From Bacteroidota bacterium (GTDB lineage Bacteria; Bacteroidota; Bacteroidia; AKYH767-A; OLB10): 64,000 nt of DNA. The translations under genes were made by a program, and so were the position numbers. The stretch spans positions 6,530 through 70,529 of the forward strand of contig JBKCHO010000014.1 of assembly GCA_046302815.1 (NCBI GenBank), read 5' to 3'. The notes beneath the pieces were generated by a model, which saw nothing but the letters and a program-made list of their open reading frames with translations, ran no database searches and was not told where the DNA came from. This document shows, piece after piece, positions 7,018-17,701 of this stretch (the first letter of the stretch is position 1; each line of letters begins with the position of its first letter).

Positions 7018-7048
7018 ATTGCTTTTTAAAAACCGTGATGTATATTTG
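7018..7048 (+). promoter_or_regulatory. Bacteroidota housekeeping promoter (-33/-7)
   Basis: TATATTTG at 7041-7048 matches TAnnTTTG. ATTG lies 19 nt upstream. The promoter sits directly before the riboswitch P1. Confidence 0.7.
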
Positions 7049-7051
7049 CAG

Positions 7052-7145
7052 CGCATTCCGAGTTTCCATGCTTCATTGCGTGGCGCCAACCGAGACGGAA
7101 CTACGGTGGTAAAATAATGCGGACCTGGCCAGGTCAAAAATTCCG
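7052..7145 (+). promoter_or_regulatory. SAM-I/IV-variant riboswitch aptamer (copy 1)
   Basis: P1 CGCATT(7052-57)/AATGCG(7116-21); J1/2 CCGAG; P2 CCATGC/GCGTGG; P3 CCAACCG/CGGTGG with the AA/U SAM-binding internal loop; no P4; P5 GACCT/AGGTC; PK2 between loop CGGAA(7096-7100) and TTCCG(7141-45). Confidence 0.82.
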
Positions 7146-7356
7146 GGAAATCCCCCGAATACTATCATTGTTCCGTCGCGTTTGCACCGACCTGGTGTGC
7201 ATTTGAATCATTTGTCTGTCACATTGATACAAAGATGTGATGGGCTTATCAAAATGCTCATGCTCATTTTGAACCCGCATCTTGTACACAAACAACGATG
7301 AATTAAAAATTTCAGTAATTATATTCTTAAGGAAGAACAACTAAAAACTCTGACAG

Positions 7357-7569
7357 ATGAAAAACGAAACGAAAAAAAAGAAAAAGATTTTATTCTTAGA
7401 CGAGACTAGGCCAATAAAGCCGTCAAGGACATACTCAGAAGTGATGCGTTCTTGGGATGAAGAATTGTTGTCATTAAATCTCATTACGCCGGGGCAATTA
7501 ATGAAGGAACCGCCGAGCCAACCAGACGATACGATAAAAGTAAAATTCATAAAAAAATCTAAAAAATAA
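7357..7569 (+). CDS. Hypothetical 70-aa Lys-rich protein (orfA), paralog of 8004..8216
   Basis: ATG start behind an A-rich leader. It aligns without gaps to 8004..8216 at ~43/70 identity by hand count, which supports coding status. Confidence 0.7.
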   Translation: MKNETKKKKKILFLDETRPIKPSRTYSEVMRSWDEELLSLNLITPGQLMKEPPSQPDDTIKVKFIKKSKK

Positions 7570-7616
7570 TAATGGCCACATAAATTAACTTATATAATCA
7601 TAAACCCAAAGAAAAA

Positions 7617-7943
7617 ATGAAAAATCACAAAGCAAAATCACAAAAGGTCCGTTCAGAAAAAGTAGATGACAAAAAATATAATTCCTCCAAGCAGGAAGCC
7701 TACATCGAATCCATCCTTCAAGTGTTGAAACAAAAAATGCTTGAATCTCAAGAACGAAAGTCCCAATTGCCCCTGTTTATCCGCAGCACGGAAGATATGA
7801 TGAAAATAATAAACGATAAGAAAGATAAGCAAAGGCATATCGTCCGCAATCAAGCAAACATTACTGCTTTTTTCCAAAAAAGGTCAGAAATGACTGCACG
7901 AACAAAAAAGGAACAAACTGATGAATCGTCAACGGAAATTTGA
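7617..7943 (+). CDS. Hypothetical 108-aa basic, probably helical protein (orfB)
   Basis: ATG behind an A-rich leader, co-oriented between the two paralogs. No recognisable motif. Confidence 0.55.
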   Translation: MKNHKAKSQKVRSEKVDDKKYNSSKQEAYIESILQVLKQKMLESQERKSQLPLFIRSTEDMMKIINDKKDKQRHIVRNQANITAFFQKRSEMTARTKKEQTDESSTEI

Positions 7944-8003
7944 AAGACATCAAATGCATTTCCTTTAAAAATAATTATCATACAAAATTAAAATCTGAAT
8001 AAA

Positions 8004-8216
8004 ATGAAAAACAAAATGAAGAAAAAGAAAAAGATTTTCTTTCACGACGCGACAAAACCGCCGAAACCGTCAAGGACATACTCAGAGGATATGCGTAAAT
8101 TAGATGAAATACTATTGTCTCTTAATCTTATTTCCCCAGAGAATTTAAAAAATCCGCCACCAGAAAACCATGACAATACCATAACGGTTACATTTATTCG
8201 ACGACCAACCAAGTAA
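8004..8216 (+). CDS. Hypothetical 70-aa Lys-rich protein (orfA'), paralog of 7357..7569
   Basis: Shares KKKKKI, KPSRTYSE.MR, LLSLNLI.P and D.TI.V.FI with orfA. Confidence 0.7.
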   Translation: MKNKMKKKKKIFFHDATKPPKPSRTYSEDMRKLDEILLSLNLISPENLKNPPPENHDNTITVTFIRRPTK

Positions 8217-8279
8217 ATCAGCTCTTGACCCTCTATCAGACCATGAAAAATGATTGAATCATAATACCCGAAAATAAAC

Positions 8280-8381
8280 CGCATCCAGAGTTCACTGCAT
8301 GTCAGTGATGCCAACCGGCCCAGTGCGCCCGGTGGAAAATTGATGCGCCATGGGATGTAAATCATCTCACCATGGAAGCGC
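8280..8381 (+). promoter_or_regulatory. SAM-I/IV-variant riboswitch aptamer (copy 2), upstream of metK
   Basis: P1 CGCATC(8280-85)/GATGCG(8342-47); J1/2 CAGAG; P2 TCACTG/CAGTGA; P3 CCAACCGG/CCGGTGG with the AA/U loop; P5 CCATGG-GATG..CATC-CCATGG; possible PK2 GCGC(8325-28)/GCGC(8378-81). Position upstream of metK is typical for SAM riboswitches. Confidence 0.88.
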
Positions 8382-8389
8382 CGTGCTAC

Positions 8390-8426
8390 AGCCCCTGTTC
8401 CGCGGAAGCCGGCAGGGGCTTCTTGT
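8390..8426 (+). terminator. Riboswitch-associated terminator hairpin before metK
   Basis: AGCCCCTG(8390-97)/CAGGGGCT(8413-20) followed by TCTTGT; imperfect U tract. Confidence 0.65.
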
Positions 8427-8467
8427 ATCTAAATCAAATCATAATAACAACCTAAAAACAAAGAACC

Positions 8468-9946
8468 ATGACAACAAATCCACGCCTGATTACTTCCGAA
8501 GCGGTTTCGGAAGGCCACCCAGACAAACTCGCAGATCGCATATCCGATGCCATCTTGGATGCATACCTGGAGGTTGATCCAAAAGCCAAAGTAGCATGTG
8601 AAACCCTGATCACCACGGGTAAAGTGATTATTGCCGGTGAGATATCGGCAACTGGCAAGCCTGCAAATACATTGATTGAAATAGCTCGTGAAGTGCTAAG
8701 GCAAACAGGATATACATCCGAAGCCGTCGGCTTCAACTGTGATACCGCTACCTATATCGACCTTACACACTCCCAAAGTCCTGAGATCTCCTCTAGTGTT
8801 GAACACGGAGGGGCAGGTGATCAAGGCGTGATGTTCGGATTTGCCTGTGATGAAACACCGCAGCTCATGCCGTTAGCGATCACCATCAGCCATGAGATAC
8901 TGGAAGCATTGACGGAAAAAAGGAAATCCGGAGAGATGCCATTCCTTCGACCAGATGCAAAATCACAGGTGACCATCCGCTATGAATATGGTCAACCAAC
9001 AGCGGCACATGTGGTGATTGTATCCACCCAACACGATGAAACGATTGAGCGCAGCCGATTACGAAATATCATAGAGGATCAAGTGGTGAGTCCTATTCTT
9101 CGAAAACATTTTGGAACCGGCAATGCAATGGTCATCGTAAATCCATCAGGTAGCTTTACGATTGGAGGCCCTCATGGAGATACAGGATTAACAGGTCGAA
9201 AGATCATTGTAGACTCCTATGGTGGTGCTTGTCCACATGGAGGAGGTGCGTTTTCGGGGAAAGATGCCAGCAAGGTGGACCGGTCGGCAGCATACATGGC
9301 GCGGTACATCGCCAAACATGTCGTTGCAGCAGGACTCGCCACCAAGTGTACCGTCCAGCTTAGCTATGGCATAGCCATAGACTCCCCCATATCCATTGAC
9401 GTGGACCTCTATGGAAGCTCCGTATATGTCGATAGCGGCGTTTCAAATGCATGCAAACGAATCTTCGACCTGCGCCCATCCAAGATTGCAGAAAAACTCG
9501 GACTGAACAAACCGATTTTCGCCGCAACAGCATCTGGTGGACATTTCGGAAGAGAGGAATTTCCATGGGAGCAACTGGACCCTGGTATCATTGCGGCTTT
9601 ACAATCGGATGAGGAGACACGAATGGACAAGGTTGAGCTGGAGCGGAGAGAACGGGCGCGAAAAGAACATGAAGGAAAACAAAAATACGCGTTACTTCCA
9701 ACGCAGGAACTCATCAATACATTCAATAAGATTGGTAGTATGGAGTTTGAAACCATTCCTCCCAGCGCAATGCTTGCAATCAAGTTCATCCACCATGAAC
9801 TCTTCCAACGAGGAATCAACTGCGACCTGATCAATCAGCGGAATGAAGCGGGCAATATCACGGGATGCACCTTCACCATTCCCATAAGAATTGAAGACAT
9901 TGATGGCAGACCAACCTTGGTAAGGGCGAATGGAGAAATGGAATAA
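8468..9946 (+). CDS. metK: S-adenosylmethionine synthetase with a ~107-aa C-terminal extension
   Basis: SEAVSEGHPDK, ACET, AGE, GAGDQG, RPDAKSQV, GDTGLTGRK, GGGAFSGKD, KVDRSAAY and FPWE (residues 365-368) are all present. The ORF then continues to residue 492. Confidence 0.93.
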   Translation: MTTNPRLITSEAVSEGHPDKLADRISDAILDAYLEVDPKAKVACETLITTGKVIIAGEISATGKPANTLIEIAREVLRQTGYTSEAVGFNCDTATYIDLTHSQSPEISSSVEHGGAGDQGVMFGFACDETPQLMPLAITISHEILEALTEKRKSGEMPFLRPDAKSQVTIRYEYGQPTAAHVVIVSTQHDETIERSRLRNIIEDQVVSPILRKHFGTGNAMVIVNPSGSFTIGGPHGDTGLTGRKIIVDSYGGACPHGGGAFSGKDASKVDRSAAYMARYIAKHVVAAGLATKCTVQLSYGIAIDSPISIDVDLYGSSVYVDSGVSNACKRIFDLRPSKIAEKLGLNKPIFAATASGGHFGREEFPWEQLDPGIIAALQSDEETRMDKVELERRERARKEHEGKQKYALLPTQELINTFNKIGSMEFETIPPSAMLAIKFIHHELFQRGINCDLINQRNEAGNITGCTFTIPIRIEDIDGRPTLVRANGEME

Positions 9947-9958
9947 CCGTCAGTTGCA

Positions 9959-10354
9959 ATGAAAATGGAAAGAGATGAATTGAAGAAACAGCTTGAGCTA
10001 TTCAAAAAGGAGTATCAACAAATATTTGGTAAAATGACCGACCAGAAGTTAGTGGACTCCCACAACAGTGCTTGCAAAATAAAAGCATGGGGCTTGTTCG
10101 TTGCCGTTTATACCGAAGCAAGGAAGGAAGAGCTGCTGAAACGTTTTCCCGATACCACAAACGTAATCGAAAAAAAAGGTCATGAATCCTATTCTTACAG
10201 CTTACGACCGCGAGGTGTTTGGATCGCATATATCAACGGGGTGAAAACCTTGGCTTGCTCCGAGCTTGACGACCAGCCTCCAACCAAACCGAAAACAGAG
10301 CCCTTTAACAAGGATCCGGATGGACATCAACTGGATTCTATGAGCTTGAACTGA
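9959..10354 (+). CDS. Hypothetical 131-aa protein (orfC), probably cotranscribed with metK
   Basis: Starts 12 nt after the metK stop. Its N-terminal half shares a residue pattern with the MetK extension. Confidence 0.7.
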   Translation: MKMERDELKKQLELFKKEYQQIFGKMTDQKLVDSHNSACKIKAWGLFVAVYTEARKEELLKRFPDTTNVIEKKGHESYSYSLRPRGVWIAYINGVKTLACSELDDQPPTKPKTEPFNKDPDGHQLDSMSLN

Positions 10355-10427
10355 TTGAATCGCCTGTAAAACCCTTGTTTTTTGATTAACTTTAAAACTT
10401 TGGGGCTTTAGATTGTTATTACTGAGC

Positions 10428-11531
10428 ATGCGCACTGGTTATAAGTTCATTCCTTACGAAGCAGCTGACGAATCTCCATTCGACAAGCTCTTCGGCATAT
10501 TCAAAGAGCTGATTGTCCATACCTCGGGCGACTTCGACGAGGCTATAGATTGGCTGCGTGAGTTGGACAAGGAATACCAATTGACCAACGAGGCTTATAC
10601 CATTGATGATTTCATCGAGGATTTGAAAAAGCGGGGCTATATCCGAGAAGCGGGTGCCGAGCCGGGCTCTGGTGGAGCCCTGACCGCCAAAATGGAGCGA
10701 GTTATCCGGCAATCGGCCTTGGAGCAAATATTCAAAAACCTGAAGCGAGCAGGATCGGGAAACCACCAAACCTCCTATACGGGTTCTGGTGATGAACATA
10801 CCGGCGAACTACGCGATTTTCGATTTGGTGATTCTTTGGAGCAGATACACATGCCCGAGAGTCTGCGGAAAGCCCAAATTGCTCATGGGATTGACGATTT
10901 CCAAATCAGTGAACAGGATTTGGTTGTTGAAGACACATTTCATAAATCGCAGATGAGCACCGTGCTCATGATCGATATCAGCCATAGCATGATCCTGTAC
11001 GGTGAAGATCGAATCACCCCTGCCAAAAAGGTGGCCATGGCCTTGGCTGAACTCATTCGCACGCGATATCCTAAAGACACTTTGGACATCATTGTTTTTG
11101 GGAACGATGCCTGGCCCGTTACCTTGAAAGAACTGCCCTATCTGCAAGTGGGACCCTATCACACCAACACCGTTGCAGGGCTGCAGCTGGCGATGGATAT
11201 TCTTCGCAGAAAAAGAAACACCAATAAGCAAATATTCATGATCACCGATGGCAAGCCCAGCTGCCTTCGCAACAGGGATGGCACCTATTATTTCAATTCA
11301 AACGGACTGGATCAGTCCATTGTTGACCGCTGTTACGCTGAAGCCATGCAAGCCCGCAAATTGCACATCCCCATCACCACATTCATGATTGCCCGCGATC
11401 CATACTTGCAGCAATTCGTGAGCAATTTCACAGAAGCCAATCAAGGCAAAGCCTATTTTGCCGGACTGAAAGGATTGGGGCAAATGATCTATGAAGACTA
11501 TCGAAAGAGTAGAAGAAGAAAATCGCTCTGA
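10428..11531 (+). CDS. VWA domain protein; probable start MRTGY
   Basis: MIDAS-type motif DISHS (DxSxS), HTNTVAGL and IFMITDG. Confidence 0.85.
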   Translation: MRTGYKFIPYEAADESPFDKLFGIFKELIVHTSGDFDEAIDWLRELDKEYQLTNEAYTIDDFIEDLKKRGYIREAGAEPGSGGALTAKMERVIRQSALEQIFKNLKRAGSGNHQTSYTGSGDEHTGELRDFRFGDSLEQIHMPESLRKAQIAHGIDDFQISEQDLVVEDTFHKSQMSTVLMIDISHSMILYGEDRITPAKKVAMALAELIRTRYPKDTLDIIVFGNDAWPVTLKELPYLQVGPYHTNTVAGLQLAMDILRRKRNTNKQIFMITDGKPSCLRNRDGTYYFNSNGLDQSIVDRCYAEAMQARKLHIPITTFMIARDPYLQQFVSNFTEANQGKAYFAGLKGLGQMIYEDYRKSRRRKSL

Positions 11532-11557: not shown

Positions 11558-13024
11558 ATGAACCTAACTGAAATCAACACCCTTGGCGAATTAAAAAAAC
11601 ATGTTGCTCCAAAGCCGCATGAAGGCATCAAAGAAGAATTGCGTCGCAACCTCATAGCTGCATTGAAGAACGGTGACAATCCGTTTGAAGGAATTCATGG
11701 TTATGAAGATACTGTTATCCCAGAACTTCAACGGGCAATTCTTTCCAAGCACAACATCAACCTACTTGGTTTACGCGGACAAGCCAAAACCCGCATTGCG
11801 CGGATGATGGTGAATCTTTTGGATGAGTGGATGCCGATTGTTGCCGGTTCGGAAGTGAACGATGACCCGTTCAGTCCTTTGTCGAGATACGCCAAAGACA
11901 CCATCGCAAAATTGGGAGATGAAACTCCAATTTCCTGGATACATAGAAACGATCGCTTTGTGGAAAAACTCGCCACACCCGATGTTACTGTGGCAGATCT
12001 GATCGGTGATGTGGATCCCATCAAAGCCGCCAACATGAAGCTGTCTTATGCCGATGAGCGCGTCATCCATTTTGGAATGATTCCCCGAGCCAACCGCTGC
12101 ATATTTGTGATCAATGAGCTGCCCGACCTGCAAGCCCGCATTCAAGTGGCGCTGTTCAATATCTTACAGGAAGGAGACATCCAGATCCGCGGATTCAAAT
12201 TGAGATTTCCATTGGACATGCAATTTATTTTCACTGCCAACCCAGAAGATTATACGAACCGAGGCAGTATCGTTACCCCTTTGAAAGATCGTATTGGATC
12301 ACAAATATTGACGCACTATCCGGATTCGGTTGAGGTAGCTGCTAAGATAACTTCACAGGAAATCCGAACCGAAAAGCAAGAACATATCTATATTCCAACA
12401 TTGGCCACCATTCTGATAGAGCAGATTGCATTCGAGGCTCGCCAAAGCGAATATGTGGATGTGAAGAGCGGTGTCAGCGCGAGAATGAGCATTTCTGCAA
12501 TGGAAAATCTAATCAGCGCCGCCGAATTACGCGCATTGAAATACGGTTTGAAGCAAACATCCATCCGCCTTAGCGATTTCCTCGCCATTATTCCTGCATT
12601 GACGGGAAAGATGGAGATTGCGTACGAAGGTGAACAGGAGGGTGCTCGCTTTGTTGCAGAACATCTGATACGACAAGCGATTAAGTCTACTTTCGAAGCA
12701 ATTTTTCCGAAAATAACAAAATTGCAAAAACAAGATGTTGTCGGACCTTATCAAGAAGTTATAGAATGGTTCGCTAATGCTGATGAGGATTTCGAACTCA
12801 CCGAAAATATGGACGATAAATCGTACCATGCACAACTCAATAAAATCATTTCGCTAACACGGTTGGTGGACAAATATCACCCTGTAAAAAATCCGGGAGA
12901 TAAGGCTTTGTTACAAGAGATGATTCTTTGGTCATTAGTTGAACACAAGAAGCTGAGCCAGGTCAAAGTTGACCAAGGCGTTGGTTACTCCGGCGGTTTG
13001 AACGAACTGCTGAAGGGATTGTAG
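11558..13024 (+). CDS. AAA+ ATPase, Mg-chelatase/MoxR-related partner of the VWA protein
   Basis: Walker A variant GLRGQAKT, Walker B variant FVINE, FTANPEDY and PLKDRI. Confidence 0.85.
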   Translation: MNLTEINTLGELKKHVAPKPHEGIKEELRRNLIAALKNGDNPFEGIHGYEDTVIPELQRAILSKHNINLLGLRGQAKTRIARMMVNLLDEWMPIVAGSEVNDDPFSPLSRYAKDTIAKLGDETPISWIHRNDRFVEKLATPDVTVADLIGDVDPIKAANMKLSYADERVIHFGMIPRANRCIFVINELPDLQARIQVALFNILQEGDIQIRGFKLRFPLDMQFIFTANPEDYTNRGSIVTPLKDRIGSQILTHYPDSVEVAAKITSQEIRTEKQEHIYIPTLATILIEQIAFEARQSEYVDVKSGVSARMSISAMENLISAAELRALKYGLKQTSIRLSDFLAIIPALTGKMEIAYEGEQEGARFVAEHLIRQAIKSTFEAIFPKITKLQKQDVVGPYQEVIEWFANADEDFELTENMDDKSYHAQLNKIISLTRLVDKYHPVKNPGDKALLQEMILWSLVEHKKLSQVKVDQGVGYSGGLNELLKGL

Positions 13025-13115: not shown

Positions 13116-15560
13116 TTATTGCTTTATGAATCGAGCTGACCGGATCGAACCATTGAATTCAGCTTGAAGATAATAAATGCCCAGTGGTAAAGATGAAACA
13201 TCGATGCCCAATTGGCTCTCGCCCATGGTAACATCCCCCTCGGATGTGTAAACGATTCTTCCACTGATATCCATTATCGCAATCCTTGCTTTCGAATCGA
13301 GAGTAGATTTGAATTGCACTATTAGTTTTTCGGACACAATATTTGGATTCACGCTCATCTCAACCATGTCCGATTCCATTCCTGATTCGCCAATATCCCT
13401 GCACGGGAATGTGATAGCCAGACTGCGATATGCACTTGAACCACAAGCATTGTTGGCGCGAACACTTACATTACCTGTGGATGTTTTGAAATTCACAAAC
13501 ACATTTGCGAATGAGGTTACCAAAGCTGTGCTACTCGATGTAACAGTTCCCGCCTGGATACGCGCTCCTGATGGAACAGTCCAACGGTAAGATGTTGCGC
13601 TTGGCACCGGTGCAATACTGTAGGGAACACCTTGCTGATTCCTACAAGGTGTTGTTGTTCCAGTGATTGGTCCAGGTAAAGCTGGTATTCTGGCTATGGA
13701 TAAAGTCCTGGCCGAGCTGGTTCCACAAGCATTAGTGGCGGTTACAGATAAGGTGAGTGCAGTAGTTCCTGAAGTAAATGAAGCCGTAATCGCACTTGTT
13801 CCTTGCCCTGTAGTTACAGTACCATTTGTAGAGGATAAGGTCCAATTGTAGGAGGTGACAGTGCTGTCGGCAACCACGCTATATGGTATGCCAGTAACAG
13901 AGCAAGCGCCAGTAGTAGGGCCTGTAATAATCGACGGAGCTGCAGGAATATTCCTACTAACAGCAACAGATGCACTACCGCTGGAACCACATGCATTGAC
14001 TGCCGCTACAGTGATGTTACCAGATGCAGGGAAGCTGGTTCCAAAAGAAACAGAAATGGCGTTTGTACCCTGCCCAGATGTGATGGTCGCACCTGTTGGC
14101 ACAACCCAATTATACGATGTGGCTCCAGAAACAGCTGCTACACTAAATGTGCGAATGTTACCTGGACAAATCAAATTGCTGCCACCACCAATGGCAACTG
14201 CACCTGGAGTTGGAGGCGTTGGACAACTCACACAAGAAGTCAAGCATGCGGCATTGTTGATGGCATTCACCATCACGGAAGTGGGCTGAGGCCCGAATCC
14301 ATTATTGAAGTTGATACCAACACCATTGACTAAATGGCAATAGCTCATGATGGTTCCAGCAACTGGAAGCGGTCCTGCGGCGCACGAACCTGAATTGTAT
14401 CCAGCAGCTGGACCACAACCATCGATTCGAGTGTTGTTTCCATTCCAAACACAATCATGTGTATGTCGGGAACCTAAAAGGTGTCCGCCTTCATGCGTGA
14501 CAACCTCAACAGACCATGAATAAGTTGGTACATTTTGGTAAGTAGAGTTGATCGCGCTATAGCCCATCTTGTATTGATTCGATGTGGAACAAAGTCCATT
14601 CACATAGGCAACTCCACCTCCACCATTGTATCCGATCAGCATGGCCAAATCACCAGCAAAAGAAGTCCGGTATGCGCCGAACTGATTCAAATAGTTGGAA
14701 GTAGTAGTTCCGGTGTACGGATCAGTTGTATCCCAAATAAACAAGGTTTGAAGCGTTGTGGAAATACCATCGTTGTTGTACAATGTGTTGACTTGATTGA
14801 ATAGCCCTTGCATATAGGTGTTCACTGCTGACAAACTTCCCTTTTGGTTGTATATATCTTGGTCTGTTTCCCAATACCAATCAACACACTTGGTAGTTAA
14901 AGTTCCTGGAGGAACAGGCTCTAATCGCAAGGCTTCTTCAGGAAGCGGATTGGCTAGAATTGATGTGTTGGCACCACAGGTGTAAGAATGACTTGCTGCA
15001 ATTTCCTTATCATTAAACACTACATGCCGACCTGATGCATCATTGGCCAAACGACCAACCACAAAATTTCCTTGATCATTGCTGATTATGGCCATGATAT
15101 CATTTTGCGTGATAGTCATGCTGACCACTGAACGGTAATCGTCTTCAACAATACCTTGGTAGTGGGCGATTCCCTTGGTGCCATCAAACCTAGTCCCACT
15201 GCTTGTGATCACTTGAAAACCCTCGGAAAGGATATCGACCTTATACATCACCAACCGAAAGGTTCCTTGATCAGCAGGAATCGTTGTAGCAAAAAACTCT
15301 GGAAAGACCTCACCAATTCCGATGTTTCGGAGCGACTCGAATTCCAAAATCTTGTGGTTAATACCTGACTGGAGCAGCTGCTCAGAAACAGGCTGAAAGG
15401 ACTCTTTGAAAAGCTGTTGCTCTTCAAATGAAACTTGTCGGTCTAATAGTTTTCTTACTTCCCTACCGATTCTACCATGGTTCTCCAATGAAGTATTTCC
15501 CGCATAAACAGGAAATAAAGGTAGCCATGCAAATACGAAACAGATAATCGCTTTTTTCAT
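13116..15560 (-). CDS. M12B/reprolysin-like zinc metallopeptidase with PKD-like repeats and T9SS CTD; start MKKAII
   Basis: Signal peptide, HEGGHLLGSRH (HExxHxxGxxH), Met-turn GTIMSYC, three Y.W....G..I..GQGT..I.V.F repeats, and a CTD. Confidence 0.88.
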   Translation of the reverse strand: MKKAIICFVFAWLPLFPVYAGNTSLENHGRIGREVRKLLDRQVSFEEQQLFKESFQPVSEQLLQSGINHKILEFESLRNIGIGEVFPEFFATTIPADQGTFRLVMYKVDILSEGFQVITSSGTRFDGTKGIAHYQGIVEDDYRSVVSMTITQNDIMAIISNDQGNFVVGRLANDASGRHVVFNDKEIAASHSYTCGANTSILANPLPEEALRLEPVPPGTLTTKCVDWYWETDQDIYNQKGSLSAVNTYMQGLFNQVNTLYNNDGISTTLQTLFIWDTTDPYTGTTTSNYLNQFGAYRTSFAGDLAMLIGYNGGGGVAYVNGLCSTSNQYKMGYSAINSTYQNVPTYSWSVEVVTHEGGHLLGSRHTHDCVWNGNNTRIDGCGPAAGYNSGSCAAGPLPVAGTIMSYCHLVNGVGINFNNGFGPQPTSVMVNAINNAACLTSCVSCPTPPTPGAVAIGGGSNLICPGNIRTFSVAAVSGATSYNWVVPTGATITSGQGTNAISVSFGTSFPASGNITVAAVNACGSSGSASVAVSRNIPAAPSIITGPTTGACSVTGIPYSVVADSTVTSYNWTLSSTNGTVTTGQGTSAITASFTSGTTALTLSVTATNACGTSSARTLSIARIPALPGPITGTTTPCRNQQGVPYSIAPVPSATSYRWTVPSGARIQAGTVTSSSTALVTSFANVFVNFKTSTGNVSVRANNACGSSAYRSLAITFPCRDIGESGMESDMVEMSVNPNIVSEKLIVQFKSTLDSKARIAIMDISGRIVYTSEGDVTMGESQLGIDVSSLPLGIYYLQAEFNGSIRSARFIKQ

Positions 15561-15724
15561 AAATAGTGATTTTGTTAAATCGAATATAAATAGGTCAATA
15601 TGCAATGTAATGCTCCACAAGCCTTTTGTCAATAAGTTTCGGGTTTTGACGCTTGGCCAGCAGTGATTATCAATGCAAAAGCAATGTGCTGAATAAATAA
15701 GATATTCGTTTTGTAAACGATTAT

Positions 15725-17701
15725 CTACCCGTTTGAAGCTCGTTCCACAAAATACATATCCATGGATCCCCTGTTTTTTATTTCTATCAATCCCCTACTC
15801 TCGCTGTTGAATTCGGATGAAAGTAATTTCATGGTAGCGGCACTTACATTAACTTTTCCGGGCTCACCTGATGATTCCATTCGAGATGCTATGTTCACAT
15901 CATCGCCCCATAAGTCGAATTGGAACTTTTTGGTTCCTACGACACCAGAAACTACGGTTCCCGAATGCAATCCGATTCGTATTTCAAAGGTCTTGCCACC
16001 AATTTGGCCTACATCTCTAAATCTATCTGACATGAACTGCCGTATTTCCAAGGCAGCGCTAACCATGTCCAATGCATGATTGGGGTTAGGTAAAGGCAAA
16101 CCAGAAACACACATGTACGCATCGCCAATCGTTTTGATTTTTTCTATGCGATACTTACCAATGATTGCATCAAAGGCTTTGAAGCAATGGTCGATTTCAG
16201 CAACCAGCTGCTCGGGCGTTAGTTCGGCGCTGATTCCTGTGAAGTTGCGAAAATCGGTGAACATGATGGTAACCTCATCGTGCTTGCGAACTTTTGCAAC
16301 ACCAAGCTTTTTCAATTCGTTGGCGGTCTCCTCCGGAAGGATGTTTAGCAAAAGCTCCTCGCTCCGTTTCTTCTCCTTGGCAATGCGGTTGCGCTGGCGC
16401 ATCAATACAATCGAGAAACCCAAAACAAGCGCCAATACGGCGAAGGTATAATTGCGTATCAATTTTTGCCTTTCAATGACAAGCTCCATTTCGGCACGCT
16501 GTTGTTTTTTTTGTAGATCACTGATTTTCCTAGAGGACTCTAAACCAAAAACGCTATCGCGGACCTGGAAAAACAGTTTGTGGTTTTTGAGCGCCTCCGG
16601 TATGTTGCCATTGCCCTCATAGGCCTTTGACAACAACTCATAAATGTCGGATAACTCTTTTTTCATACCCAATGATTCGGCACCCTTTGCAGCTTCCTCC
16701 AAAAAAACAATTGCATCGGTCCATCTGCCTTCCTCGACTCTTATCTCCCCAATTCCCTTTCGACACCAAACGGCCGCGAATGGGTCGTCTAGCCGTATGG
16801 CATCGGCCAATGCAGATTGCCTCAAATGCAATGCAGAGTCACGAACAAGTGACTGTACATTTGAACTGCTAGCGCCAGGCAAACTTCCAAATATGGAGAA
16901 TGCAGAATCCGGTGGCAGCTTTGAAACAGCAAAAAAGATGTTGCTCAGATTGAATATCGAATACATTTCACCTCTTTCATTACCCATTAATTTCCGAAGC
17001 CGCAGACTTTCCTTATGGTAACCATAGGATGCCAAATAATTCTTCATATAAAAACTGACCATGCCCAAATTATTGTTGGACTGCGCCAAGCCAGAGGAAT
17101 CGTCCAACTCGCTACGCAAATCCAAACTCAATCGATGATATTGGAGCGCGTTTTCGTTGTCCTTCATGGCTTCATATACAACCCCCACATTGTTGTAGCT
17201 CTCGGCAAGCTTGTCCTTGTTTTCCGCTTTTTTACTCTGTTCAATATTGGCCAAAAAGCGCTCCAACGATTCTGCGTAGCGACTTCTTTGATAGAGGGCT
17301 ACGCCAGCCGCATCGTTGGCCTTGTATGACAAATCGAACAGGCCGCTTTTGGTGGCCGCTTTTCCAACAGAGTCATACAGCGAAAGTCCCCTTTCAAAAG
17401 CATTCGACCAAACCAACAATTCCGCTTTGAATAGCTCCGACACCAACACTTCTGATTTATTGTTGGATTGCAGCGCCATATTCACGGCCTTTTCTGCCAA
17501 ACCCAATGCTTTGGAGGTATCCTTGTCCTGGCGAGCTTTTTCGGCCTCCGATCGAATCTTTTCAATGTAACTTAAGCCAGAGTTAGATTCCTGCGCCCGA
17601 GGCTCAAAAACAAAAAAATGGATAAAGATGAATAAGACTGCCCAGTGCCGGGGCATGCAATAGACTGATTTCGACAAAGAGTGCATCTCGAAAGGACTCA
17701 T
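15725..17701 (-). CDS. Membrane-anchored TPR-sensor class III adenylate/guanylate cyclase; start may be slightly downstream
   Basis: TPR repeats (LAESYNNVGVVY, LAQSNNNLGMV), one TM helix, MFTDFRNFT, EKIKTIGDAYM and FDLWGDDVNIASRME. Confidence 0.9.
   Translation of the reverse strand: MSPFEMHSLSKSVYCMPRHWAVLFIFIHFFVFEPRAQESNSGLSYIEKIRSEAEKARQDKDTSKALGLAEKAVNMALQSNNKSEVLVSELFKAELLVWSNAFERGLSLYDSVGKAATKSGLFDLSYKANDAAGVALYQRSRYAESLERFLANIEQSKKAENKDKLAESYNNVGVVYEAMKDNENALQYHRLSLDLRSELDDSSGLAQSNNNLGMVSFYMKNYLASYGYHKESLRLRKLMGNERGEMYSIFNLSNIFFAVSKLPPDSAFSIFGSLPGASSSNVQSLVRDSALHLRQSALADAIRLDDPFAAVWCRKGIGEIRVEEGRWTDAIVFLEEAAKGAESLGMKKELSDIYELLSKAYEGNGNIPEALKNHKLFFQVRDSVFGLESSRKISDLQKKQQRAEMELVIERQKLIRNYTFAVLALVLGFSIVLMRQRNRIAKEKKRSEELLLNILPEETANELKKLGVAKVRKHDEVTIMFTDFRNFTGISAELTPEQLVAEIDHCFKAFDAIIGKYRIEKIKTIGDAYMCVSGLPLPNPNHALDMVSAALEIRQFMSDRFRDVGQIGGKTFEIRIGLHSGTVVSGVVGTKKFQFDLWGDDVNIASRMESSGEPGKVNVSAATMKLLSSEFNSESRGLIEIKNRGSMDMYFVERASNG

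Follow-up and report, generated by a model that had tools for sequence, protein, structure and literature searches.

A Bacteroidota S-adenosylmethionine synthetase fused at its C-terminus to a domain of an undescribed family

Introduction

What is an additional domain doing at the C-terminal end of a bacterial S-adenosylmethionine (SAM) synthetase, MetK, and how did it come to be there? The question is raised by an open reading frame (ORF), here called metK2-X, on the plus strand at positions 8468..9946 of a 64,000-nucleotide stretch from a Bacteroidota bacterium (GenBank assembly GCA_046302815.1, contig JBKCHO010000014.1, positions 6,530 to 70,529), which is referred to below as the window. 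The 492-residue product of the ORF combines an intact MetK with a C-terminal domain from a hitherto undescribed family of small domains, called "X". A preliminary description of the window, made from its letters alone, had reported a MetK with an extra C-terminal domain, and this domain proved to be real.

The essential enzyme MetK occurs almost universally, and its bacterial form is seen as a stand-alone homotetramer that is controlled mainly through its expression; we know of no regulatory subunit of bacterial MetK. On balance, we lean towards reading the metK-X fusion as a tethered accessory module of MetK that would be expressed when SAM is low, a view drawn from sequence comparison and structure prediction.

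Results and Discussion

The MetK core and its C-terminal extension

The catalytic core of the protein (residues 1-371, positions 8468..9580, plus strand) belongs to a short-type second metK paralog. The NCBIfam metK equivalog, TIGR01034, matches residues 8-371 through positions 2-368 of its 377-position profile; the score of 495.9 bits exceeds the curated cut-off of 309.4 bits, and the three Pfam domains of MetK follow one another in order, each above its gathering score (PF00438 at residues 7-105, PF02772 at 115-230 and PF02773 at 232-369). The active-site signature motifs GHPDK, GAGDQG, GDTGLTGRKIIVD (D.G.TGRKII) and GGGAFSGKD are all present in the translation, as first claimed, and are invariant among the four closest fusions; the assignment of the catalytic residues follows established knowledge of Escherichia coli MetK. 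Alignment to solved bacterial MetKs stops at residue 373, the best match in the Protein Data Bank (PDB) being 5t8s with 398 bits.

The landmarks around the end of the enzyme lie where they had originally been placed, namely FPWE at residues 365-368, GAGGAG at 9611-9616 and an in-frame ATG at 9623 (codon 386). The extra domain is slightly larger than the approximately 107 residues first estimated, with about 115-120 residues lying beyond the enzyme, and neither Pfam nor NCBIfam has a family that matches the final ~120 residues. The junction (residues 372-385, positions 9581..9622, plus strand) corresponds to the short helix with which MetK normally ends (LDPGIIAALQSDEETR) and was modelled as a helix in the first AlphaFold2 (AF2) prediction; in unfused short MetKs the equivalent segment forms the C-terminal end, as in the proteins of L051 and L015, which stop directly after LDEQIIKSLKSE and INNEIIKSIKANLLN, respectively. 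Solved and typical bacterial MetKs, such as the E. coli enzyme (PDB 1fug and 1rg9), are matched by MetK2-X as a full-length three-domain enzyme with the same signature motifs, but they stop ~10 residues past FPWE, whereas MetK2-X runs ~120 residues further into a separate predicted folded domain.

The genome (2.7 Mb, 95% complete) encodes two metK genes. The other copy, on contig C140, is the canonical Bacteroidia-type metK of 424 residues with the internal insert of this lineage, in contrast to MetK2-X, which is a separate, short-type and riboswitch-associated paralog. In a maximum-likelihood MetK tree the canonical type was set apart with 100/100 support and the window gene fell among the short-type MetKs, where all metK-X fusions form one clade (support 83/86). 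The stem branch of the genus to which the window belongs is long in this tree (0.8 changes per site), and given this length altered kinetics of MetK2-X are possible.

Sequence family and predicted fold of X

The extension comprises a helix rich in Glu, Arg and Lys (a0; residues 386-408, positions 9623..9691, composition MDKVELERRERARKEHEGKQKYA) and a globular part (residues 409-492, positions 9692..9946), both on the plus strand, which agrees with the charged helix and globular segment of the preliminary description. AF2 places a0 at model residues 3-23, equivalent to 388-408 of the protein, followed by helices at residues 412-423 and 432-447 and by four beta strands at 456-458, 464-467, 473-478 and 481-486 (H27-38, H47-62, E71-73, E79-82, E88-93 and E96-101 in model numbering); the globular part thus runs from a1 ('QELINTFN') through a2 ('HELFQR') into the strands. 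With a 20-sequence family alignment (A6) the model reached a predicted local distance difference test (pLDDT) score of 85.4 and a predicted template modelling (pTM) score of 0.71, compared with a pLDDT of 66 from five close sequences.

Members of the X family span ~90-100 residues and share a collinear order of features: a variable charged helix, a helix with xxELIxxFN, a loop that often holds [AG]W (between a1 and a2), a helix with EL..R, a 'D.S.I' motif before the strands, and a four-stranded sheet. The Asn of 'FN' (N420) and the Arg of 'EL..R' (R448) are invariant in 23 X-family sequences. Charged helices equivalent to a0 were also found in the fusions of a second genus (g17), and a0 is probably a stiff spacer. 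Net charge is not a conserved property, as the isoelectric point (pI) of X ranges from 5.0 to 9.6 across members, the domain of the window being acidic.

No match to X was returned by Pfam, NCBIfam or PHROGs searched with many members, or by a sequence profile search of the PDB. A Foldseek comparison of the extension, which had been proposed at the outset, gave no significant structural match for the pLDDT-85 model (best E 0.57 in the PDB and 0.25 in BFVD) and noise only for the first, pLDDT-66 model. X is a protein family named by no library searched (Pfam, NCBIfam, PHROGs, PDB, BFVD); a literature search likewise found no paper describing a MetK with such a domain, in keeping with the initial statement that no described MetK with this appendage was known.

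The extension of the window has lost the family Trp and gained a 'TFTIPIRIEDIDG' segment. A genus-specific segment, NEAGNITGCTFTIPIRI (window positions 9800-9900, residues ~445-480), mimics the D.AGN..C.F.V.V motif of repeats of the hyalin (HYR) type. An identity of X as a HYR domain was considered and rejected: only ~40 residues (query 68-109) match, the matches are to giant repeat proteins, Pfam reports no HYR domain, and the X family members outside the genus lack the motif.

Conservation and origin of the fusion

A search for other MetK fusions, suggested in the preliminary description, found the architecture repeatedly. MetK with the tail is present in other assemblies (P0002-P0004 and the species genomes L003, L004 and L006, with a fragment in P0005); a search with residues 372-492 retrieved three protein clusters of this architecture besides that of the window, the tails of which share 88, 80 and 68% identity with the window tail. 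An exhaustive phmmer search of 1.84 billion representatives added a single further relative, the fragment P0005 at 46% identity, along with spurious matches to HYR-like repeats. Because the same architecture occurs in other, independent assemblies, the fusion is not a sequencing artefact.

Scanning 146 genomes of the order for metK revealed additional second copies with long open frames, and MetK-tail fusions came to light in two further genera belonging to this family, g3 (L009, L010, L013, L014) and g17 (L008, L011, L012, P0014). The tails of these proteins are only 17-23% identical to that of the window, yet collinear with it. A profile search for the X domain detected it in 15 of the 83 genomes of the family (3/6 in g1, 7/12 in g3 and 5/20 in g17), and a metagenome scan with a narrow alignment yielded four loci, with the fusion present in contigs L059-L061. 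Between orthologs, the ratio of nonsynonymous to synonymous substitution rates (dN/dS) was 0.12-0.16 for the extension and 0.04-0.06 for the catalytic core; therefore, the tail is coding and constrained, although more loosely than the enzyme.

The preliminary description had offered a recent fusion as one explanation. The fusion origin fits the data, whereas the recency does not, because the fusion is common to three genera among which the extension is only 17-23% identical. As all fusions fall into one clade of the MetK tree, a single fusion event is consistent with the tree. In the more distant Bacteroidia genome represented by L051, a separate X gene follows 43 nt after a short MetK, which represents the unfused state. 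We infer that the present gene may have arisen in a single fusion event, when the stop codon separating a riboswitch-controlled metK from the X gene behind it was lost. The situation resembles Rosetta-stone fusions in that metK and X are neighbouring but distinct genes in L051, L046 and L053 and are fused in three genera of one family; it differs in that the metK-X fusion usually keeps a free paralog of its X domain beside it. The retained free paralog suggests a pairing between like domains and not a simple consolidation of two subunits.

One further locus, L025:1468-2803 in genome G109, carries metK2-X split into two overlapping frames (274 and 178 residues) with a truncated X end, and represents either a pseudogene with a frameshift or a misassembly.

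A free-standing paralog and other free X proteins

Directly behind the fusion, starting 12 nt past its stop codon, lies orfC (positions 9959..10354, plus strand), which encodes X', a free-standing paralog of the extension with 131 residues. The paralogy is visible by profiles only: BLASTP of the extension against orfC gave no signal (E 0.88), whereas hhalign of the extension against a profile of nine orfC sequences gave a probability of 85% and an E-value of 5.8e-6 over 106 collinear columns (E 0.0022 with three sequences). As a non-circular check, a hidden Markov model (HMM) was built from X members of other genera only and searched against the 30,964 six-frame ORFs of the genome; the best score went to orfC (E 3.8e-9), followed by the MetK extension (E 0.046), and no other ORF of the genome scored better than E 0.15. 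The orfC protein is conserved in P0015-P0021, L003 and L004.

Both a fused and a free copy of X were found in 12 of the 15 fusion genomes, the free copy standing beside the fusion in the loci that were inspected. In g3 an X' of 111 residues follows the fusion directly, and in g17 an X' of ~150-167 residues lies ~1 kb away. Outside the family, two samples of 400 genomes each yielded X in 7 genomes at the level of the class and in 2 at that of the phylum. Other Bacteroidia families carry X only as proteins of 83-156 residues, either beside metK or directly behind a SAM-I/IV aptamer of their own. A free X gene adjoins metK in L046, L051 and L053, in the last case in the order metK-aat-X-DUF3293.

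The L053 locus (L053:2-2127, genome G341) comprises metK, aat (Leu/Phe-tRNA protein transferase, PF03588), X and DUF3293 (PF11697), and the aat-X-DUF3293 block is repeated on a second contig of the same genome (L048:2-1092).

SAM-I/IV-like aptamers in the leader

Two SAM-I/IV-like aptamers (RF01725, gathering score 41.1 bits) precede metK2-X on the plus strand. The first, at 7048..7151 (38.8 bits, E 6.7e-4), is the first of an ancestral tandem pair, and the second, at 8276..8374 (36.2 bits, E 0.0025), lies directly upstream of the gene. The L004 ortholog of the first aptamer scores 42.9 bits and aligns with it base for base, and the second aptamer aligns to the second of L004. Among orthologous or analogous aptamers at other loci, 14 of 17 exceed the gathering score (42.9-60.9 bits); the three below it are the second aptamer of L013 (40.2 bits) and the second of L004 and that of L060, both unlisted at E 0.1. 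These two matches are the only SAM-I/IV-like matches in the 2.7-Mb genome, and no riboswitch was detectable near the canonical metK on contig C140 within the 4.1 kb examined.

Aptamers of this class, often in tandem, accompany the other MetK2(-X) loci, with two in L009 and L013, three in L010, L011, L059 and L061, and four in L012, where one of the four stands directly before the free X' gene. All aptamers of the three- and four-membered arrays (L010:6159-6686, L011:387-1270, L012:6345-7923, L059:88-615, L061:1262-1791) score above the gathering score, and they lie upstream of metK2-X and small neighbouring genes. To our knowledge, triple tandem aptamers of the same class are unusual. Free X genes that lie far from metK and have their own SAM-I/IV aptamer occur in L047 (57.6 bits), L050 (48 bits), L052 (44.8 bits) and L058 (61 bits), with monocistronic aptamer-X units in L050 and L052. 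A riboswitch upstream of metK is a classic arrangement (PMC2864571). In likeness to this, the RF01725 aptamers found here occupy the leaders of short-type metK and free X genes; the differences are that they form tandem arrays of two to four and also precede genes for orphan small proteins (X and others), and that the pair in the window has a 1.1-kb block of ORFs inserted between its two members. Both this association of the SAM-I/IV class with orphan small proteins and its arrays, which reach four aptamers, can serve research on riboswitch logic.

A GC-rich hairpin (AGCCCCUG...CAGGGGCU) followed by UCUUGU at 8390..8427 (plus strand) is a plausible candidate for the terminator of the riboswitch expression platform; its fold has a free energy of -21.9 kcal/mol (z = -1.86) and its sequence is conserved in L004, and it was not listed by a simple terminator scan. 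The ~1.1-kb block between the aptamers (7152-8275) has a GC content of 0.34 compared with ~0.47 in its flanks, and holds an AT-rich insert (7357..8216, plus strand) with the orphan ORFs orfA (7357-7569), orfB (7617-7943) and orfA' (8004-8216). The orfA and orfA' genes are paralogous Lys-rich ORFs of 70 residues that flank the 108-residue orfB, and none has a Pfam match. The insert is not part of the conserved module, since the block is absent from L004, in which the aptamers lie ~130 nt apart.

Other orphan small ORFs were observed behind SAM-I/IV aptamers or metK, including a 122-residue ORF that is co-operonic with X in two unrelated contigs (L047:1696-2064, L058:2620-2988), a 106-residue ORF preceded by two aptamers (L012:6563-6883), and related-looking ORFs of ~95 residues after metK in L046 and L053; no Pfam match was obtained for any of these.

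A proposed role for X and its alternatives

Because fusion, adjacency to metK and a shared riboswitch association are three separate kinds of genomic evidence, X is tied to SAM synthesis. In the mechanism that we propose, a fall in SAM would open the riboswitches and the cell would make MetK2-X together with free X'. X would act as a protein-binding accessory module of MetK, carried on a stiff helix rich in Glu, Arg and Lys; it would most likely pair with X' or with another X, and this pairing could adjust how the SAM synthetase assembles, how stable it is or how active it is when SAM is short, in the manner of a regulatory subunit. While we incline to the tethered module expressed at low SAM, the accessory or regulatory reading of X taken alone is held more cautiously, as a serious possibility that falls short of being probable. 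More tentative still is its broadest form, in which X may be the first family of accessory or regulatory subunits described for a SAM synthetase of bacteria; SAM-I/IV riboswitches would induce it upon SAM starvation, and it would act either fused or in trans, with fused and free copies pairing to switch assembly, stability or product inhibition.

One analogy is the mammalian MAT2A-MAT2B pair, and it would be functional only, namely a non-catalytic partner dedicated to SAM synthetase, which is suggested here by fusion and adjacency. The PDB matches of MetK2-X include 4ndn, which we take to be the MAT2A-MAT2B complex. MAT2B is a regulatory beta subunit of ~330 residues with a Rossmann fold (SDR-like, RmlD substrate-binding family), whereas X is a helix-plus-sheet domain of ~90 residues with no detectable relation to it, fused in cis, accompanied by a free paralog and associated with riboswitches. 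An identity of X as a MAT2B-type subunit was rejected on its size of ~90 residues, the lack of a Pfam match and its wholly different predicted topology.

Several observations weigh against the accessory module. Both aptamers of the window score under the RF01725 gathering score. The extension of the window is a divergent X member that lacks the family Trp and reaches only E 0.046 against the HMM of other genera. In one fusion genome (G066) no free X was seen. Additionally, X often lies among other orphan small ORFs, and could be one of several riders of these operons.

The alternative that fares best, although we think it unlikely, is that X is a sensor of a small molecule (SAM, methionine, S-adenosylhomocysteine or a related compound) that regulates MetK allosterically, with free X serving as a buffer or signal. 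Its strict linkage to SAM riboswitches and metK would suit a sensor, as would the few polar residues (N, R, E, D/S) that are invariant or nearly so; however, X has no similarity to any known ligand-binding fold, and the keeping of fused and free copies together is explained better by protein-protein pairing. A little less likely again is a tether that docks the synthetase on a SAM consumer, such as a methyltransferase or radical-SAM enzyme, and channels scarce SAM to a priority client. No conserved client gene lies nearby, and the neighbours vary by genus (VWA and AAA+ genes only here, unrelated genes in g3 and g17), which speaks against this idea, whereas the placement of the domain on a predicted stiff charged helix, as for a module that reaches out to bind, and the putative expression only under a riboswitch are what it would predict.

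It is improbable that X is unrelated to MetK function, that is, a fast-evolving orphan small gene (immunity-like or selfish) whose fusion is tolerated baggage. The association with metK or SAM-I/IV aptamers recurs in unrelated families, including the monocistronic L050 and L052, and the fusion has been kept under purifying selection in three genera, which outweigh the presence of other orphan small ORFs in the same operons (orfA, orfB and orfA' here, the 122- and 106-residue ORFs and DUF3293 elsewhere) and the rare, patchy distribution of the family (7/400 genomes of the class, 2/400 of the phylum).

We regard as very improbable a winged-helix-like, nucleic-acid-binding domain that would bring MetK to DNA or RNA or act back on the leader of its own operon. 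X resembles a winged helix in that its helices precede a beta hairpin, and the first, low-confidence model gave weak matches to TFE-alpha, DnaD-N and MarR-like proteins (E 1-4), but no such matches were obtained with the confident model, and charge is not conserved in the family. A winged helix-turn-helix identity was rejected, as no winged-helix protein is among the top Foldseek matches of the pLDDT-85 model.

About as improbable is the idea that X is made mainly as a separate protein from the ATG at 9623 (M386), with GAGGAG as its ribosome-binding site; the preliminary description had raised separate production as a weak possibility. Both elements are present at the positions given above; the codon of M386, however, encodes Val in P0003 and Leu in P0004, L003 and L004, and GAGGAG encodes the conserved 'EE' of DEETR. 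Shine-Dalgarno sequences are neither used nor recognised by Bacteroidota ribosomes (PMC7797042), and orfC already supplies a free copy of the domain. An assembly error or one-off stop loss, which was named at the outset as a refuting outcome and which would join metK to an unrelated gene and leave a functionless tail, agrees with the separate adjacent genes of the distant relative L051 but can be dismissed, as many independent assemblies, spanning three genera, carry the fusion unbroken, the tail evolves under a dN/dS of 0.12-0.16, and the exact protein is recorded from 2 contigs.

Surroundings of the cassette

Downstream of orfC lie genes for a VWA-domain protein of 372 residues (10413-11531) and an AAA+ ATPase of the MoxR / Mg-chelatase type of 488 residues (11558-13024). 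This pair was considered as a part of the cassette and rejected, as it accompanies the cassette only in this genus and is far more conserved than the cassette; comparing the translations by eye suggested very high conservation between the species of the genus. The pair is probably an independent housekeeping operon. Further along, on the minus strand, follow two ordinary Bacteroidota genes, which encode an M12B-like metalloprotease with PKD domains and a type IX secretion system (T9SS) sorting tail (13116-15632) and a TPR-adenylate/guanylate cyclase (15725-17701). A phage or mobile-element origin of the cassette was likewise rejected, with no phage family matches and with chromosomal flanks.

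Conclusions

The practical payoff of this finding is modest, the X family being rare and confined to uncultured Bacteroidota. For the biology of SAM synthesis in these organisms, X adds a protein family with an unmatched predicted fold to the SAM-riboswitch regulon, and the combination of a fusion, a free paralog and a riboswitch association means that X can be tested as a candidate partner protein of bacterial MetK.

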